Positions 3,472 through 10,182 of a stretch of 10,182 nucleotides of DNA are shown piece by piece. The notes under the pieces are model-generated. The model was given only the letters and a program-made list of their open reading frames with translations. It was not told the DNA's origin and ran no database searches. The stretch covers positions 1 through 10,182 of the forward strand of contig JBDRIL010000053.1 in the NCBI GenBank assembly GCA_043815885.1, read 5' to 3'. Both the position numbers and the translations under genes were made by a program. This stretch comes from an archaeon (lineage in GTDB: Archaea > Iainarchaeota > Iainarchaeia > Iainarchaeales > 1-14-0-10-31-34). The stretch's first letter is position 1, and each line of letters starts with the position of its first letter.

Positions 3472-3753
3472 TTATGTTTCCTCCAGTTTACTCATTAATT
3501 CTTCAGCTATTTTTTTCGCGTCTTCTTCTATTGGGGTTTCCTTTACAAGAATTTTTCCGCTCTTAAAGAAGGAAAGAGTCTTTCCCCCCATCCTTAAAAT
3601 CAATAGAAAAGGGGTTTCTATTTCAATGAATACCTCTTTTTCCTTTAATTTTTCTGCTATCTCACTTAAATCCAGTTTATTCTTTTTTTTTGGAATGAAT
3701 TCAAAAGCTGTACGGCTGTTGCATGCCTTTCCAGTGAAATCCTTTAACTTCAT
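3472..3753 (-). CDS. Small hypothetical protein resembling the C-terminal extension domain of some bacterial MoeB/ThiF proteins
   Basis: 93 aa. Start overlaps the thiI-like stop (ATGA, 3750-3753) and the stop lies 1 nt before the Yip1 start. The pattern C-x-x-R-x-A...P....LDL..IA..L...TPFLL.......L.FFKSGKILVK.T...E.AK recalls the MoeB C-terminal extension. The CDS is secure; the family assignment is from memory. Confidence 0.75.
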   Translation of the reverse strand: MKLKDFTGKACNSRTAFEFIPKKKNKLDLSEIAEKLKEKEVFIEIETPFLLILRMGGKTLSFFKSGKILVKETPIEEDAKKIAEELMSKLEET

Positions 3754-4388
3754 TTTTCTTTCACTAAAAACTCTGTTTTATTATCTACTGCATAATTAAT
3801 TAATTCAGTTGCATTAATTTTAGCTTCTTCCTCTTTAATTAACTTTTCCCTTGCCCTGGTGGAAGGCTTATCCGGAACCAAATGACAGCAGGAAGGAGGA
3901 AGAAGTGAAAGTTCATAGGTTCCAATCTCTCTGGCAATCTTCTCTATTTCAATTTTATCCATTCCAAGCAATGGCCTGAGAACAGGAATTCCTGCAATAA
4001 ATTCTGCTCTGAGATTGCTCAGGGTTTGAGAGGCCACTTGCCCTAAACTCTCTCCGGTAAGCAATGCCATTGCATTCTCTTTTACTGCAATCCTTTCAGC
4101 AGTCCTTAACATCATTCTCCTGCAGAGAACACAGGAATACTTTCTCTCTGCATTCCTGCCTATTTCGGTTAGAGTCTTTCCAAAAGGAACAATAATCAAT
4201 TTTATTTTTTTATTATGCTTTTTGCTCAAGAGTTCAACTATTTTTTTTATTTTTTCCTCTGAACTCTTTTCAGTGAAAGGATAATTCAGGAAATGCACTG
4301 CAATTACTTCAATTCCTTTCTCCCTTAAAGCCATAGAAGTAGAGACAGCTGAATCAATTCCCCCACTCAAAAGCGAAACAAGCTTCAT
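3750..4388 (-). CDS. thiI: ThiI-like tRNA 4-thiouridine synthase, PP-loop catalytic domain only (no NFLD/THUMP)
   Basis: LLSGGIDS PP-loop, AVHF, CVLCRRMM (C86/C89), TGESLGQVASQTLSNL, VLRPLLGMDKxEI..IAREIGTYE, and C167/C168 before P..PST. These are all ThiI signatures. The protein is 212 aa and starts directly at the PP-loop strand. GAGGA lies 7 nt upstream of the ATG. Confidence 0.88.
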   Translation of the reverse strand: MKLVSLLSGGIDSAVSTSMALREKGIEVIAVHFLNYPFTEKSSEEKIKKIVELLSKKHNKKIKLIIVPFGKTLTEIGRNAERKYSCVLCRRMMLRTAERIAVKENAMALLTGESLGQVASQTLSNLRAEFIAGIPVLRPLLGMDKIEIEKIAREIGTYELSLLPPSCCHLVPDKPSTRAREKLIKEEEAKINATELINYAVDNKTEFLVKEK

Positions 4389-4906: not shown

Positions 4907-5854
4907 ATGAAGAAAATATTATTAATATTCTTTTTATTGCTGTGCTGCAGTCTGGTGAGCGCAGCACACGCAACCCTGCTTAGCGTCCACGGATACTTAA
5001 TGGATTCAGCTACAGGGGAAGGAATGGGAGGAACAAGTATTACGCTACAAATCTGCACTACCTCCGCATGCAGTACAGTGCTGAATACAACCAATATTAC
5101 AACCGATAACTCAACACATGCAAAGGGAAACTTTGATGCATTGCTTGACCCAGTACAAATGAATTACAATCAAGAGTACTGGTTGAGGGAAAAAGTTGGA
5201 GCAACAACGATTGGAACCTATCAATTCAAAGGCGGACAGGGACAGATTGGACCGGAAGACGTTAACCCAACCTCTGCCTATACTTTTGGAAATGTTACTG
5301 CAGGAAGCGTTTTTGTTGGTTCAAGCAACGAAATAAGGTCCAGCGGAGGAGCACTCTGGATTAACCGTTCAGTTGGAAACGGATTAATTGTATCTGATGG
5401 AAGTGCAGGAATGGGTTCATTATCTGCTGGAAACGCCAGCTTATTAGCTACCACAGTTACTAGCCTGAATTCAAGCGGAAACGTTACAGTTAATGGAAAA
5501 GTTAGCATTGGAGCAGGAAGCCCAACCGAAAAACTTGAGGTCAGTGGTAACATTAGAGCATCTGGAGCTGATCCCACCCTGATTCTACAGGACTCAGGAA
5601 ACGATGGAAGCAGGCCATCCATAAAATTTATTAACAATCAACTTGCAACCATTCAAGGAAATGACACTGTAGGAAACCCACAAATATTTGGCTTTTACAG
5701 TAAATTCGGTAGCACTAGAACAAATGATGCAGAAATCCAAGTATTCGGAAGTGCCGCTGGAAGTTGGGGTAAATACATTAGTATGGGTCATGACGGCACA
5801 GACGGAACCATAAAAACAGACACTGGAAACATAATAATCCAATTGGGTTCATGA
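4907..5854 (+). CDS. Secreted tail-fibre-like surface protein
   Basis: Signal peptide MKKILLIFFLLLCCSLVSA. N-domain SVHGYLMD..G....ITLQI...GNFDALL...YWL resembles the 'QGxLxDxxG' N-domains of cellular tail-fibre-like proteins. One GKVSIGAGSPTEKLEVSGNIRA unit matches the 'VGIGTxxPxxKLxVxG' fibre shaft motif. G/S/T/N-rich, with about 9 N-x-S/T sequons and no C-terminal TM anchor. Confidence 0.75.
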   Translation: MKKILLIFFLLLCCSLVSAAHATLLSVHGYLMDSATGEGMGGTSITLQICTTSACSTVLNTTNITTDNSTHAKGNFDALLDPVQMNYNQEYWLREKVGATTIGTYQFKGGQGQIGPEDVNPTSAYTFGNVTAGSVFVGSSNEIRSSGGALWINRSVGNGLIVSDGSAGMGSLSAGNASLLATTVTSLNSSGNVTVNGKVSIGAGSPTEKLEVSGNIRASGADPTLILQDSGNDGSRPSIKFINNQLATIQGNDTVGNPQIFGFYSKFGSTRTNDAEIQVFGSAAGSWGKYISMGHDGTDGTIKTDTGNIIIQLGS

Positions 5855-5889: not shown

Positions 5890-7803
5890 ATGAAATTAAA
5901 CAGAAAAATATTGATTGGATTTATTTTAATTCTGTCAATTATTTTTTCCCAGTCAGTTTCAGCTCAAGGAGTGTGTCTTGCATATTGTGGTTATGGAGAT
6001 CCATTATGTACCAACCCCTCTGAGTGCGTTGGCCCTGATCCATGGAATGCATGTGATCCTTGTTATACCCCAAGTGTCACGGTTCTTCCTTCGGGTGATT
6101 GTGATTGTACTTGCGTAGCAGAAACAAATTGCCCCCCAGCAGGAGGTTGTGCTACTGACCGATGCCCAATAACTCCTGATTGGGCTCGTTACCTTGGAAG
6201 TCCTGGATATGATGAAGCAGAAGGTGCCTGCAGTATCATGGAGAGATGTGATGAATACACTGAATGTAGGTCTAGTTATTATAAGTGTATTAGTGGAGGA
6301 ATTCCTGGACCATTATTCTGTGTATACCAGCCAGGAAAAATGCCTTACGGAGCATATGTATGGGTAGATCCTGCAACAGATGTAGTTCCAGAAAATGACC
6401 CCAGCCTTAACAATGGATGTGGCGATGGACATGATAATGATTGTGATGGAAGGATTGATGAAGAAGATACTGATTGTGATTCAACTGCCCCAACTATTAC
6501 TGATAGTTGTGGGGGGGCATGCAGTACTTCAGAGAGTTCAATTACTGTTACACTCACGCCAACTGATCCAAATCTAAAAGAAGTAAGGTATTGCTACAGT
6601 GATGGCACTGCTTCAGGGGATTCAACTGAAATAGCAATGTATGACAATGCTGTTAATGCTCCAAAATGCTTGACTGGTGGGTCGCCCTGCACTACTGTTT
6701 ATGACCCAGGGCCCCCAGCAAAGTCATTGATTACTGGAAGGAATGGAGAATTCGCAAGATCCCAAGAAGAGAATTTCTGGTATAATCTTTATAATCAGGA
6801 TCCCAGTGCTTCCAGTGTTCCACGAAGTCTCTCTCCAAGAGAACCAAACGAGCCAAACACTATTGATGACTGTAGGGATTGGGGTAACAGTGCACTTGGG
6901 CAGGTGCCAGAAAATCTAACCAATGCATTTATTGAACACATTAAGGTTTGGGTTGGAGATTATGATATTAATCCAGGTGAAACATTTAATTATGAAGTAA
7001 AGGCTGACTGCAACAGTACCTCAGATAAAGTTTATGTTTTTTATACGAGTAATGCTTCCTCTCCTTCCTGGAGTGAGAAAAAAGGGGTTAATTGTCCTGG
7101 CACTGGATTTCAATATATTACTGGTTCTTTTGCTTTGTCAGGAAATGCAGGATATCATGCAGTAAGGGCAGTAATTGCCAAGGAGGCACAGGGAACCTGG
7201 GATACTGCTTCCTGCCCTGGATTAACAAATGGAAATGCTGTTGATTCAGATGTGGATGATTTAGTGTTTAATGTTATTTCTACTGTTTCTGGTTGTGTTC
7301 CGACAATAAAGCTTTCTCCTTATCAGTTAACGCACTGGTATTATGATGGAGATAAAACAGTAAGATACAGGGCATGGGATAAGGCAAGAAATGAATCAGC
7401 GATTGGGTCTTATACTGTTACTTTTCTTACTCCCTCTACAGCTGAATGCCCTTGCGTAATAATAAGGAGAGGGGCAAGCGATGTAAAGGCAAAGATTGGA
7501 AGTAATGGAGTAATGGAAATAGAAGGGCAAATAAAATCAGTTAATGGGGTTGGCTGGGTTAATCCTTCAGGAAATGATGACTTTGTTATAAAGAATTCCA
7601 GTGGAACCATTAATGCATGGATTGATGGAAGCACTGGAGGATTGTACTTAAAAGGAAGCCTGAACAGGAATCAAGGTGCATTAAGTCCTCCTGGTTCAGG
7701 TAATTTAATTATAAAGAATTCTGCTGGAACAGTTGTAGCTTACTTTACAAGCAGTGGAGCCCTTTATTTAATGGATGAATTAGTGGAGAATTCTTCAATC
7801 TAA
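5890..7803 (+). CDS. Secreted Cys-rich multidomain surface protein
   Basis: Signal peptide ending SVSA. 20 Cys in aa 29-196, including CGDGHDNDCDGRIDEEDTDC. Followed by an interrupted Ig-like domain, an inserted ~215-aa domain and three C-terminal beta repeats. AGGAGA SD at 5878-5883. Confidence 0.88.
   Translation: MKLNRKILIGFILILSIIFSQSVSAQGVCLAYCGYGDPLCTNPSECVGPDPWNACDPCYTPSVTVLPSGDCDCTCVAETNCPPAGGCATDRCPITPDWARYLGSPGYDEAEGACSIMERCDEYTECRSSYYKCISGGIPGPLFCVYQPGKMPYGAYVWVDPATDVVPENDPSLNNGCGDGHDNDCDGRIDEEDTDCDSTAPTITDSCGGACSTSESSITVTLTPTDPNLKEVRYCYSDGTASGDSTEIAMYDNAVNAPKCLTGGSPCTTVYDPGPPAKSLITGRNGEFARSQEENFWYNLYNQDPSASSVPRSLSPREPNEPNTIDDCRDWGNSALGQVPENLTNAFIEHIKVWVGDYDINPGETFNYEVKADCNSTSDKVYVFYTSNASSPSWSEKKGVNCPGTGFQYITGSFALSGNAGYHAVRAVIAKEAQGTWDTASCPGLTNGNAVDSDVDDLVFNVISTVSGCVPTIKLSPYQLTHWYYDGDKTVRYRAWDKARNESAIGSYTVTFLTPSTAECPCVIIRRGASDVKAKIGSNGVMEIEGQIKSVNGVGWVNPSGNDDFVIKNSSGTINAWIDGSTGGLYLKGSLNRNQGALSPPGSGNLIIKNSAGTVVAYFTSSGALYLMDELVENSSI
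6418..6477 (+). other. CxDGxDNDCDGxxD acidic putative metal (Ca/Cu)-binding motif (MopE-related motif type)
   Basis: Translates to CGDGHDNDCDGRIDEEDTDC, single copy. Confidence 0.75.
7456..7800 (+). repeat. Three ~40-aa protein repeats at the C-terminus of the 637-aa protein
   Basis: VIIRRGASDVKAKIGSNGVMEIEGQI / FVIKNSSGTINAWIDGSTGGLYLKGSL / LIIKNSAGTVVAYFTSSGALYLMDEL. Units 2 and 3 share DNA ATAAAGAATTC..(G/C)TGGAAC. Confidence 0.8.
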
Positions 7804-7818
7804 AAAGTGATAAAAAAA

Positions 7819-10182
7819 ATGAAAAAAGTTTTTCTTGCATTGATTTTGCTTTCCTTTTTTCCTTTAATTAATGCTTATCATGGAAGTGGCGGCGGATACG
7901 AGACTTGGGGTTCAATTAATTACGGTGCAAGTGATGACAGTAGTGGAAGCTACAGGGTAATGACTTTTCTGATAGACCAGCCTTGTGTTCATACAATTCA
8001 AGGAAGCTATGAATCATTTTTGTGTTATTATTTTTTCACTCAAAATGAAACAGAGGAATTAAGTGTTAACCTTTCAGCTGATACTGTTTCAGGATGCGCT
8101 CCATTAACAGTCAACTTTACTGCCACAATTTCTAATGGAACTGGCCCTTATCGTTATCAATGGTATTGGAATTGGTCTGCAGGACCAGACATTGACGAAG
8201 TAATTGCTTCTGCCATTTCTTTAAAATCCCACAACTATGCTATTGGACCATATACGGCAAAAGTAATTATCACAGATAATTCAACTGGAAAAACAGCAGA
8301 AGATTCACTTACAATTGATTCACTGAATTGCGGTGGCCCATTCGGTGTCACTCTTACAGCTGACCCTACTTCTGCTTGTTGTCGGTCGGATATTGACTTT
8401 ATTGCTACTACATCTGACGGAACAGGGCCCTACACTTATGACTGGTATTTTCAATGGCCTTCCGGACTTAACGGAAGCTATAACAGTGCCAGTCCTTCTT
8501 ATTCACTTATTTGGAATTACTTTGAAGAGGGATTATGGACTGCAAAAGTAATAGTAACCGATAACAGCAATAATGACACTGCAGAAGCTTCCGTAATAAT
8601 TGACGTGAATGACACTACAATAAGTGTTTCTCCTACTGCCCAAACAGTTGGATTAAACGAGTTATCTGATTTTTATACTGCTGACGCTAACTGTAAAGCA
8701 TGGGCAGACATTGTTTGGGCTGTTAACGAATTAGGAGGAGACCCTGATTGTAATTGCTACTCATATAACGGAGCCACACCTAACGGAACATATATTGGTT
8801 GTGCTCCTGGAGCCGCCCCAACAGGAGATCGATTAAAGATGGAATGTAATACCCCAGGGCAAAGAGACATCAAGTTTTCAATTGCTACTGCATGCAATAA
8901 TGGGCCAGTTCTTGTACACGCTTATGCTACACTTGATGTTGTGGCTGGTTTAAGTGTTGACCTTTCAGCAAATCCTTCCTCTGGATGCGATCCACTGGAC
9001 ATAAATTTAACTGCAGTGATTTCTAATGGAACAGGGCCATATGATTATAATTGGTTCTGGAAGGCGCCTTACACTACTCCAGACAAAATAATGACTGGCT
9101 TTGCTTCTGACACCAATACACAGTCACCTCCTGCCTACACTCCTGACGGAACATACAATGCAAAGGTAGTGGTGAAAGATTCAACCGGAGAAACCGCAGA
9201 AGCTATAGAAAACATTATTGTAGTGGACTGCACTGAATTCAGTGTAATTCTTACAGCAGACCCAACTTCTGGAGATTGCGCTCCATTGCTTGTTGATTTT
9301 AATGCAATAGCTTATGGATACTTGCCAATTGATCCAAGCGCTCCTGAATATGGTGATATTGGTGTCCCTTGGGGTTTTACTTGGGCGTGGGATGCTGATT
9401 GTTTGCCTGCAGCACCTTCTTCTTGGTGGTGCAGTCTTGTAGACGTTTATGGACAAGCAGTTCTTGACAATAATATTAGCTTTAGTCATATTTATGACAC
9501 CAAAGGACTTCATCACGCTAAAGTCTCGCTTGCTGAAGAGGATGCCTACTTTAACAATTTATTAGGAGATGCCAACGATTCAGTCGAAATTACTCTGACT
9601 AAAGACCTTACAGTTGTTTTAACTCCATCAGAGGGTTATATTACAGTTTATGTTGATGAGCAAGAGACTTTTACTGGAGGAGGAGATTGTGTGGGAGAGT
9701 ATTCTTGGAAAGTAACTGCAAATCCAGCGGACCCTGCTGAATGTGTTTGTAATGGAAATTCTGGGTCTGATTGTGTTACGGATGCAGCTGCTGGTTTACT
9801 AGAAGGAGCCGATCTTGATACTTTGGATGTTTACTGTACGACTGAAGGAGACAGGTTAATTACTCTTACAACGAGTTGGAGTGTTCCTGGAGCTTCTGAT
9901 TCAAAGACAGATAACGCTCCTTTTAATGTTGTTGACAATCTGCCTCCAACTGTTGATGCGAAAGGACCTTATTTTGGGGTAATTAATGAGGACTTTAATG
10001 TTTCGGGTTATGCTGTGGATCCGGAAGGGGATGCAGTTAATGAAATTGAGTGGATTAATATTCCTGTGGAATGCACTTTGGTTGGTGAGGTCGTGAGCGG
10101 GATTGGAACTGATTATGCGGACAATAATGCAGTGATTAATTGTTCTATCAGGGGAGCAAAACAAATAAAGTTAAGGGCGAGT
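7819..10182 (+). CDS. Large secreted PKD/Ig-like repeat surface protein (adhesin-like), 3' end beyond window
   Basis: Not in ORF track. Hand translation from ATG 7819 is open for 788 codons. Signal peptide MKKVFLALILLSFFPLINA. PKD-type units (LSADTVSGCAPLTVNFTA...GTGPYRYQWYW...AKVIITD...TAE). A seventh unit begins NLPPTVDAKGPY...DPEGD. About 15 N-x-S/T sequons. Weak SD AGTGA upstream. Confidence 0.92.
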   Translation, partial: MKKVFLALILLSFFPLINAYHGSGGGYETWGSINYGASDDSSGSYRVMTFLIDQPCVHTIQGSYESFLCYYFFTQNETEELSVNLSADTVSGCAPLTVNFTATISNGTGPYRYQWYWNWSAGPDIDEVIASAISLKSHNYAIGPYTAKVIITDNSTGKTAEDSLTIDSLNCGGPFGVTLTADPTSACCRSDIDFIATTSDGTGPYTYDWYFQWPSGLNGSYNSASPSYSLIWNYFEEGLWTAKVIVTDNSNNDTAEASVIIDVNDTTISVSPTAQTVGLNELSDFYTADANCKAWADIVWAVNELGGDPDCNCYSYNGATPNGTYIGCAPGAAPTGDRLKMECNTPGQRDIKFSIATACNNGPVLVHAYATLDVVAGLSVDLSANPSSGCDPLDINLTAVISNGTGPYDYNWFWKAPYTTPDKIMTGFASDTNTQSPPAYTPDGTYNAKVVVKDSTGETAEAIENIIVVDCTEFSVILTADPTSGDCAPLLVDFNAIAYGYLPIDPSAPEYGDIGVPWGFTWAWDADCLPAAPSSWWCSLVDVYGQAVLDNNISFSHIYDTKGLHHAKVSLAEEDAYFNNLLGDANDSVEITLTKDLTVVLTPSEGYITVYVDEQETFTGGGDCVGEYSWKVTANPADPAECVCNGNSGSDCVTDAAAGLLEGADLDTLDVYCTTEGDRLITLTTSWSVPGASDSKTDNAPFNVVDNLPPTVDAKGPYFGVINEDFNVSGYAVDPEGDAVNEIEWINIPVECTLVGEVVSGIGTDYADNNAVINCSIRGAKQIKLRAS
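8059..9936 (+). repeat. Degenerate tandem duplication of a three-domain block (A1-B1-C1 / A2-B2-C2)
   Basis: A1 8059 vs A2 8950 (TTAAGTGTT[A/G]ACCTTTCAGC...GGATGCG.TCCA...ATTTCTAATGGAAC.GG.CC.TAT). B1 8341 vs B2 9238 (TTC.GTGT.A.TCTTACAGC.GACCC.ACTTCTG). C1 ~8617 vs C2 ~9607 share the C..W.V..CxC..C..C.T.G.R.I pattern. Offsets are 891 nt (A) and 897 nt (B). Confidence 0.85.

Follow-up and report, generated by a model that had tools for sequence, protein, structure and literature searches.

A predicted β-sandwich module of an unnamed family, probably nested within an Ig-like domain of a secreted archaeal protein

In the archaeal contig JBDRIL010000053.1, whose entire length of 10,182 bases is the window analysed here, one gene raises the question of whether a complete protein domain sits inside a loop of another. 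The gene, P0001, encodes a secreted protein in which a stretch of roughly 215 residues lies between two short segments that resemble the front and the back of a single immunoglobulin (Ig)-like domain. The initial annotation of this DNA, made from the letters alone, had proposed that the Ig-like domain is split by an insert and that the insert had crossed from Myxococcota or diatoms into an archaeon. All the strings it quoted occur in the translation of 5890–7803 where it had placed them. The split is borne out at the level of sequence by complementary half-matches, obtained with three methods in three proteins, while both flanks score low in a structure model; the proposed origin is not borne out. 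The explanation judged probable is that P0001 is a secreted protein with a discontinuous Ig-like domain that holds a complete module as its head, and that the module arrived horizontally from a donor that is left unnamed.

The insert belongs to a large family. A phmmer search with amino acids (aa) 241–470 against 1.84 billion cluster representatives (50% identity) gave 145 matches at E≤1e-3 and 29 at E≤1e-10, and at E≤1e-30 the query stood alone. The family profile matched aa 250–466 over model positions 1–199 (E 4e-53, with the query included in the profile). Two rounds of local profile building collected 203 strong module copies in 142 proteins, which carry between one and five copies each. 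The consensus starts with A.Y[DN]...GAP.C...SPC...L...R......EPNQPNTID.C.DG.SGTY..DES[IV]..I and goes on with Y......SP.W.....C...G......F.L....G.HA[IV]R...........C..G.Y.D.DD..F.V; EPNQPNT[ILV] is read in 70 of 190 module copies. In alignment A3, N320 and R426 are invariant, and E318, P322, N323, T324, C328, D330, G363, Y385, W394, G406, A424, C442, D454, D456 and D457 are conserved in at least 90% of the rows. All of these invariant or near-invariant family residues are kept in P0001. The motif given in the initial annotation, YD..APxC...GR...EPNxPNT...C.DG...AVRA...D.DDLVF.V, is this consensus.

The P0001 copy departs from the family in two places. Between '...LITGRNG' and 'REPNEPNT' it carries the extra loop already pointed out in the initial annotation as about 30 residues long, an insertion of ~27–30 residues compared with ~6–9 residues at this site in other members (A3); a shorter expansion is found there in P0004 and P0006. 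The conserved 'DG.SGTY..DES[IV]' that follows the signature Cys is absent in P0001, which reads DWGNSALGQVPENLTNAF instead, and also in P0004 and P0006.

No named family covers the module in the libraries searched. Pfam yielded nothing over it at E≤1, apart from a 12.5-bit CHB_HEX_C_1 hint in P0001, and NCBIfam yielded nothing in six members. Searched by sequence, the PDB gave nothing relevant for P0001 and no match to the module profile at E≤1. A Pfam scan covered 78 of the 144 non-self phmmer matches (those of up to 1250 aa, in rank order). Forty-seven of these relatives had no Pfam family at E≤1e-5, and in the others the matches fall outside the module. Partner peptidases were found in 7 of the 78, namely Peptidase_M28 (1), M6 (2), reprolysin-type M12B (2), S8 (1) and Trypsin_2 or trypsin-like (1). 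The other partners are Big_7 (12), MopE motifs (4), FG-GAP, PKD, CarboxypepD_reg, Kelch and β-helix domains. The initial annotation had taken the insert for a C-terminal domain of myxobacterial and diatom proteases. A Myxococcaceae M28 peptidase is indeed among the members; the diatoms are a lead from ESM Atlas only, and the family is far wider than either group.

The module also occurs by itself and in several copies per protein. A Nanoarchaeota protein of 205 aa, P0014, consists of a signal peptide and the module and nothing else. The giant proteins P0008–P0012, P0017 and P0024 (1969–4024 aa) hold two to five copies; P0010 is labelled Nanobdellota, and so is P0009, of 1239 aa. The module is thus used repeatedly in the make-up of very large surface proteins of DPANN archaea.

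On either side of the insert, aa 197–240 and aa 467–512 are probably complementary parts of one OmpL47-type Ig-like domain, a case of moderate strength that is built on profile comparisons. The OmpL47-type model of NCBIfam (NF047446, 68 positions) aligns aa 486–511 with its positions 42–67, with an E value of 2.4e-3 for the protein, 1.2e-4 for the fragment and 6.1e-4 genome-wide. In P0004, the upstream flank gives a weak match to positions 7–26 of the same model (E 0.077). A local profile of 38 contiguous copies drew on four database proteins, one metagenome open reading frame (ORF) and two ORFs of the source genome, with the test proteins excluded. It matches P0001 twice and in order, aa 216–241 on positions 12–40 and aa 481–503 on positions 47–69. 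P0004 is matched over positions 12–43 and 37–68, and P0006 over positions 16–43 and 32–68. The insert-less P0005 is matched contiguously over positions 11–66. With hhalign, 30 contiguous copies from relatives compared with the four-member family recovered the N-terminal half, aa 216–240, at E 1e-4 and a probability of 57.6%.

The host domain has the strand pattern of OmpL47-type and Big_7-type Ig-like domains (NF047446; PF17957), '..ITVTL..D...v.Y..dg' followed by '...G...v.Y.a.D.AGN.E'. OmpL47-type domains are common in surface proteins of the relatives of the source organism. Unlike the contiguous copies, the P0001 domain is discontinuous, with ~226 residues between its halves, and its 'AGN' reads 'ARN'.

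It is a subtype with a Cys-closed hairpin, and the hairpin marks the break. Six of the 30 contiguous Ig-like copies have a hairpin of the form YYC/YC-x5-6-C[TSA]P, four of them from genomes of the source organism's order; the initial annotation had described it as YC-x(5-8)-CxP. At the break, P0001 reads ...EVRYC235YSDGT, the insert, and then SGC469VPT. C235 and C469 are invariant in the four-sequence family alignment, and they correspond to the two hairpin cysteines of the YYC...C[TSA]P copies. By this correspondence, the insertion point would coincide exactly with the short Cys-Cys hairpin of the contiguous copies, and a C235–C469 disulfide probably staples the base of the insert. The module is autonomous and its parent uninterrupted in relatives, since P0014 stands alone, 30 Ig-like copies are contiguous and P0005 is contiguous too. 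The 'loop-grafting' of the initial annotation is therefore a fitting term: an autonomous module interrupts an Ig-like domain at a Cys-flanked loop.

A different loop is expanded in a relative of 1405 aa, L007:9872–14086 (+), in which the first OmpL47-type copy (ORF aa 183–302) has ~21 additional residues between '...RSGCP' and 'FAALDETYYC'. Loops of the OmpL47-type domain seem to tolerate insertions.

The nested arrangement is rare but not confined to one protein. The nested family comprises P0001, P0004/P0150 (575 aa, on metagenome contigs of 220 and 339 kb) and P0006 (720 aa). P0004/P0150 and P0006 are 36–47% identical to P0001. Since this second lineage has the same break point and keeps both cysteines at such a distance, the nesting is old and maintained. 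Among the 203 module copies, only those of P0001 and P0004 have a partial N-terminal half just upstream and a partial C-terminal half just downstream; P0006 belongs to the same nested family and fell under the score threshold of this survey. Of the 203 copies, 26 are followed directly by a complete Ig-like domain and 23 are preceded directly by one. Tandem arrangement is the rule and nesting the exception.

Other relatives share the ends of P0001. P0005, from metagenome contig L003, has the Cys-rich N-terminus, the DGHDNDCDG repeat and the C-terminal repeats around a different middle without the module; P0151 has just the C-terminal repeats in common with P0001, and in P0151 a LamG lectin domain precedes them. 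A search of 40 related genomes gave no full-length P0001, the sole other match being 31 residues of the acidic repeat. A word-indexed protein search found only P0004 with the insert, and with the C-terminal part only P0151, missing P0004; with a contiguous Ig copy it found four proteins among longer ones. A metagenome scan keyed on DGHDNDC returned mostly unrelated Cys-rich proteins and one true relative, P0005.

These observations suggest how the protein would be built and how it might work. P0001 would be an exported, disulfide-rich protein of the cell surface or the extracellular space. Its Ig-like strands would run up to '...EVRYC235', a complete module would follow on short linkers, and 'C469VPT...YRAWDKARNES' would then complete the Ig-like fold. 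The Ig-like domain may serve as a rigid stalk on which the module, clamped at its base, is presented as a head. This head might bind a surface polymer, most likely a glycan, and the 31-aa loop together with the replaced 'DG.SGTY..DES' might reshape the binding face and tune its specificity.

The provenance of the two parts appears to differ. The module profile finds one copy in the source genome and no copy in the phylum's other 214 genomes searched, many of them incomplete, whereas the OmpL47-type domain is found in 29 of 41 related genomes at E≤1e-6. On account of this distribution, the scaffold is considered native and the module a newcomer. Since the source genome is the only one of 215 in its phylum with the module, some horizontal arrival of the module, or of the whole gene, is likely in this lineage.

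The taxonomic range of the module was sampled by scanning prokaryotic genomes, one for each species, for degenerate DNA that encodes EPNQPNT[ILV][DN]. At least 128 loci were found and 118 were verified by profile; the counts are a biased sample, as the motif covers about a third of the module copies (70/190). Among the 118 verified loci listed, the bacterial ones belong to Acidobacteriota (83), Pseudomonadota (6), Myxococcota (3), Fischeribacteriota (1) and unnamed bacteria (6). At least 19 are archaeal: Woesearchaeota (6), Nanobdellota (5), Methanosarcinales (3), Micrarchaeota-labelled (2), Hydrothermarchaeota (1), Aenigmatarchaeota (1) and unlabelled (1). Of 20 phmmer matches examined, seven carried an organism label, namely Altiarchaeales, Nanoarchaeota, Nanobdellota (2), a Halobacteria-labelled metagenome-assembled genome (MAG), a Myxococcaceae bacterium and 'bacterium'. 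Myxococcota are thus among the 145 relatives of the insert, as the initial annotation had expected of a search with the insert alone, but Acidobacteriota make up the bulk of the verified loci and archaea contribute at least 19. In ESM Atlas, the clusters nearest to the insert are diatom-dominated (0.90) and Myxococcota-dominated (0.89), and the eukaryote-looking match P0007 likewise lies near diatom and Myxococcota clusters (0.89–0.93 for both queries). Diatoms are probably members of the family, a lead only.

The strongest competitor of the favoured explanation, although unlikely, is a direct cross-domain transfer, in which a bacterial or diatom module would have been captured and inserted into the archaeal Ig-like domain. 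The absence of the module from the rest of the phylum and the ESM Atlas leads fit such a transfer. The trees point both ways for the trio of module copies from P0001, P0004 and P0006. In a FastTree phylogeny of 314 copies, labelled Archaea (20 rows) and labelled Bacteria (104 rows) are split by one change, and the trio belongs to a clan of 91 rows (support 94) in which all 20 labelled Archaea occur but none of the labelled Bacteria. A quick IQ-TREE analysis (LG+C20) used 125 rows, that is 88 of the 91 clan rows, with three long-branch rows dropped, and 37 hand-picked outgroup rows. One change again parts labelled Archaea from labelled Bacteria (97). Here the trio is sister to a 38-row bacterial crown (SH-like approximate likelihood-ratio test, SH-aLRT, 88). 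The 49-row set that contains it (97) includes 19 title-labelled Bacteria and none of the 20 title-labelled Archaea, yet it also includes P0028 from a Halobacteria-archaeon MAG. The trio nevertheless stays outside the crown, and the branch that parts the crown from the trio and the Archaea has a support of 91. The two methods therefore disagree on which side of the archaeal/bacterial boundary this long-branched trio belongs. On both trees it lies at that boundary and is nested in no bacterial phylum.

The specific donor named in the initial annotation fares worse. A clade of the trio with five Myxococcota rows was tried and rejected, at a cost of 108 log-likelihood units and p 0.0039 in the approximately unbiased (AU) test; the grouping was chosen with the tree already in view, and the five rows may themselves not be monophyletic. 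Base composition agrees with the host: GC content is 0.413 in the module, 0.411 in the whole gene and 0.368 in the genome, and GC content at third codon positions (GC3) is 0.281 in the module and 0.255 in the whole gene. These values give no sign that the module came recently from a GC-rich donor. The best phmmer matches that can be named include proteins of Altiarchaeales, Nanoarchaeota and Nanobdellota. With the wide spread of the family, the place of the trio at the boundary, the AU test and the host-like GC3, the transfer from Myxococcota or diatoms is not upheld. The donor is not specifically a myxobacterium and cannot be named.

The fold of the module was modelled. The AlphaFold2 run suggested in the initial annotation (aa 191–520, 43 alignment rows) folds the module and leaves both flanks below 50 on the predicted local distance difference test (pLDDT). 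The predicted template modelling score is 0.67, and the module comes out as an all-β sandwich with a pLDDT of about 90, its ten-residue blocks lying mostly at 85–96. The extra loop is predicted to form helices at model residues 99–119 (aa 289–309; block pLDDT 61–72). Foldseek against the PDB ranked the C-terminal carbohydrate-binding domains of Wzt first (5hno, E 7.3e-5, template modelling (TM) score by target 0.50), followed by the porphyran carbohydrate-binding module (CBM) 8wae (TM by target 0.60) and CARDB, over a range of E 7e-5 to 1e-3 and TM by target 0.45–0.60. VIA, which is independent of Foldseek, reached a best Z of 7.7, with 5hno at a root-mean-square deviation (rmsd) of 6.7 over 134 residues and the CARDB structure 3idu at rmsd 3.5 over 106 residues. 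On this model, the module would be a generic β-sandwich of the CBM or Ig type.

In size and predicted architecture the module is like the O-antigen-cap binding C-terminal domain of Wzt (5HNO, 2R5O, 6O14), CARDB (3IDU) and small CBMs (8WAE), and like the CBMs it is an accessory domain of secreted enzymes. It differs from Wzt_C and CARDB in its own Cys-containing N-terminal lead, A.YD..GAP.C...SPC, and in having no sequence relation to them. Its E.N.PNT...C.D and D.DD signature was not found in the libraries searched, and neither P0001 nor the 78 scanned relatives showed sequence membership in PF14524 (Wzt_C), PF07705 (CARDB) or a CBM family. A binding role is suggested by the generic fold likeness and by the place of the module as an accessory domain of secreted enzymes; the best guess is an accessory binding module whose ligand is most likely a glycan or a surface polymer. 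Three points tell against this assignment. The VIA list still stands at Z 6.6 at rank 50, so that Z 7.7 is within the range the tool calls common. The function would follow from domain context and a generic fold match. Finally, with 'DG.SGTY..DES' missing, the module of P0001 could have lost or changed its activity.

A broader reading, quite unlikely as a whole, makes P0001 one member of a DPANN-type surface family with constant ends and variable heads. The constant ends would be the Cys-rich N-terminus with the DGHDNDCDG repeat and the tail of C-terminal β-repeats. Between them would lie differing middles: P0001, P0004 and P0006 would carry the clamped module and P0005 other Cys-rich and Ig-like parts, and P0151, which has the tail only in common, would carry a LamG lectin. 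The Ig loop would then resemble an antibody loop scaled up to a full domain. The module would represent a new, possibly Ca-dependent glycan-binding class of archaea, bacteria and diatoms, with which episymbionts might recognise the surfaces of their hosts.

The favoured reading, that of a discontinuous Ig-like domain, also has to be weighed against a plain linear string of domains, in which the flanks would be separate small elements such as a Cys-rich linker and a short β-hairpin unit. Several results count in favour of such a string and against nesting. AlphaFold2 folded neither flank confidently, with pLDDT <50 for aa 191–242 and 468–520. The single half-matches are weak, with 6.3 and 8.8 bits as domains and 20.6 bits against the 40-bit NF047446 cut-off. 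The curated cut-off of that model is not reached by the C-terminal half (18.3–22.4 bits, positions 42–67 only), although a score below it is expected for a discontinuous domain. In P0006, the N-terminal half scores just 0.7 bits, and the C235–C469 disulfide is itself a prediction from aligned cysteines. Two attempts at a deeper flank alignment, A6 with 30 contiguous Ig-like copies added and A7 with N- or C-terminal parts of 24 loci, ended with MAFFT placing the Ig-like pieces on the module's own C-terminal strands. Since both are β-sandwich sequences, short profile matches between Ig-like pieces and the module are not fully specific.

The pairing in A6 and A7 puts 'G.h.v.Y.s.D.AGN.E...i.i' on the last strands of the module, 'G.HAVRA......D.DDLVF.V'. 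It may be due to chance between β-sandwiches or to a very distant kinship of the module with Ig-like domains.

A linear string is nevertheless very unlikely. The halves, at ~45 aa each, are too short to be Ig-like domains alone, and their matches occupy complementary model ranges in the right order in three proteins. The 11.6 bits of the N-terminal half were reached by 1 of 1000 shuffled sequences and the 14.5 bits of the C-terminal half by 0 of 1000. Among 5152 six-frame ORFs of the genome, the local profile matched only its two training ORFs and the P0001 gene (E 0.0031). The break, moreover, coincides exactly with the hairpin that two cysteines close in contiguous copies. The two flanks would accordingly be expected to fold into a single sandwich. 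Co-folding of the halves as separate chains (aa 194–244 and 464–516, three-row alignments) was rated as weak support, with a score of 0.38 (runs 0.46, 0.34 and 0.38; best control 0.02), partner pLDDT of at least 64 and agreement of the runs in at least 83% of the contacts. Of 157 solved complexes, 116 reach the mark for a pass, as do 2 of 215 mismatched pairs; at scores ≤0.60 it is reached by 18 of the 157 and by both mismatches. This calibration is only rough, the alignments being our own, and a pass may reflect mere likeness, as Ig-like domains abound among solved structures; the co-folding result is not counted as evidence.

A third way to the same arrangement is deletion, in which a tandem Ig–module–Ig protein would have lost the back half of its first Ig-like domain and the front half of its second. 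The full Ig-like domains next to 23 and 26 of the 203 copies supply suitable material, and in the Myxococcaceae protein P0040 a Big_7 domain, in a stretch that is also a weak OmpL47 match, lies between two module copies. Even so, two precise deletions would have to restore both the fold and the Cys register, where one insertion is simpler, and no intermediate was seen among the 203 copies, which makes this origin highly improbable. Lastly, a viral or mobile-element gene for a tail-fibre-like receptor-binding protein is scarcely credible, for although a Peptidase_S74 protein (E 2.3e-13) with PHROG tail-fibre matches is encoded two genes upstream of the P0005 gene on L003, and P0002 has weak Hoc-like PHROG matches, the latter are explained by PKD and Ig-like domains, P0001, P0003 and P0005 have no PHROG match at E≤1e-3, and the other genes of the window are cellular housekeeping genes (ThiI, M50 protease, Na/Ca exchanger).

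The nesting in P0001 is thus a real but fairly ordinary domain-in-domain insertion, the family of the insert being nameless in the libraries searched. In pilus adhesins of Gram-positive bacteria, RrgA for example, binding domains are nested in Ig-like domains of the Cna type, and given such adhesins an Ig-like host would not be unprecedented. Nested architectures in general are like P0001 in that the parent is interrupted by an autonomous insert on short linkers, and the particular pair of host and insert was not present in any library searched. Domain insertions are reported for 20% of multidomain proteins (PMC13114784); in a term search of the text of that article, Ig-like or immunoglobulin hosts have 0 occurrences.

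The analysis defines a widespread module of secreted proteins that has no Pfam, NCBIfam or PDB-sequence match and merits a family entry. Its carriers include Acidobacteriota, Myxococcota, Gammaproteobacteria, several archaeal phyla and probably diatoms. P0001 would also offer a clean natural case of a whole domain grafted into the Cys-clamped hairpin of a ~90-aa Ig-like domain, with insert-free relatives at hand, which is useful for the engineering of domain insertions. In small-genome archaea, surface proteins are likely host-contact molecules, and the variable 'head' tells what to express. The case does not amount to evidence for a striking inter-domain gene transfer.

The features of P0001 are collected in the table. 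The N-terminus, MKLNRKILIGFILILSIIFSQSVSAQG, was judged by eye to be a signal peptide, with no predictor run. The acidic repeat motif (DGHDNDCDG) is invariant in P0001, P0004, P0005 and P0006. No Pfam or NCBIfam family matches the C-terminal repeat region, which might form an anchoring or oligomerising tail; its units, F[VI]IKNS.G...A.IDG.TG.LYLKG, recur at the end of P0151, behind the LamG lectin domain.

Table. Positions of the P0001 gene, its parts and the strings quoted in the initial annotation (nucleotides of the window, aa of the protein).
Feature	Nucleotides	Strand	Residues (aa)	Basis or remarks
Whole gene P0001	5890..7803	+	637 aa	secreted, modular, Cys-rich; sole long ORF there
Cys-rich N-terminal region	5965..6417	+	26–176	common to insert-less P0005 and the N-termini of the L007 and L013 ORFs; no Pfam family
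Acidic double-disulfide repeat CGDGHDNDCDGRIDEEDTDC	6412..6483	+	175–198	NCBIfam NF033662, E 3.3e-4, 20.3 bits, under the 41-bit cut-off
Putative N-terminal half of OmpL47-type Ig-like domain, ends ...EVRYC(235)YSDGT	6478..6609	+	197–240	local profile, hhalign
Inserted module, predicted β-sandwich	6637..7287	+	250–466	~217 aa, ~190-position unnamed family; phmmer, family profile, AlphaFold2
Lineage-specific extra loop in module EFARSQEENFWYNLYNQDPSASSVPRSLSPR (EFARSQ...SLSPR)	6748..6840	+	287–317	31 aa; alignment A3
Family signature EPNEPNTIDDC	6841..6873	+	318–328	A3 conservation
Divergent stretch WGNSALGQVPENLTNAF in place of family 'DG.SGTY..DES'	6880..6930	+		alignments A3 and A5
Putative C-terminal half of Ig-like domain, begins SGC(469)VPT; DGDKTVRYRAWDKARNES	7288..7425	+	467–512	NF047446, local profile
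C-terminal repeat region, units like FVIKNSSGTINAWIDGSTGGLYLKG	7450..7800	+	521–637	kept in P0004, P0005 and P0006
String DSTAPTIT	6478–6501		197–204	
String EVRYCYSDGT	6580–6609		231–240	
String AMYDNAV	start 6634		start 249	
String DDLVFNV	end 7275		end 462	
String GCVPT	start 7291		start 468	
String SYTVTF	end 7425		end 512	

The window comes from a genome of 1.16 Mb in 62 contigs that is 91.7% complete. Its left half carries cellular genes, namely those for a Na/Ca exchanger, an M50 protease with a CBS domain, Yip1 and ThiI, and a short ORF with a TBP-type domain. Because of these genes and because genomes of ~1 Mb are found across the whole order, the evidence points to a small-genome, DPANN-type archaeon as the source organism. 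On the + strand, three secreted-protein genes follow the cellular ones, at 4907–5854, at the position of P0001, and from 7807 to the contig end.

The first of the three (P0003) encodes a Gly/Ser/Thr-rich protein of 315 aa with a signal peptide and no family match. Its C-terminal ending, '...GN[IV]IIQLG', is shared with the product of L003:3268–3951 (+), the gene upstream of that for P0005 (BLASTP E 6e-4 over 50 residues). This likeness suggests a conserved gene pair, with a P0003-type gene upstream of a P0001/P0005-type gene. Two genes upstream of the P0005 gene, L003:1422–3149 (+) encodes a secreted protein of 575 aa with a C-terminal Peptidase_S74 'chaperone of endosialidase' domain and matches to many PHROG tail-fibre families; it could be a cellular fibre or viral.

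The third gene of the window, 7807–10182 (+), is open at the contig end. Its product, P0002, has at least 792 aa and carries PKD-type repeats, each with a 'GTGPY.Y.W[YF]W' motif; the weak Hoc-like PHROG matches are probably due to Ig and PKD folds. The GC content of the three surface-protein genes is 0.41–0.43, compared with 0.36–0.37 in housekeeping genes and the genome value given above. Their GC3 is low (0.345 in P0003, 0.255–0.27 in P0001 and P0002), and the GC excess of the surface genes therefore stems from amino-acid make-up and not from foreign codon usage. In the left half of the window, the ORF with the TBP-type domain, 3472–3753 (-), is 93 aa long, contains a single such domain (PF00352, E 3.6e-6) and overlaps the end of the ThiI-domain gene, 3750–4388, by a few bases.

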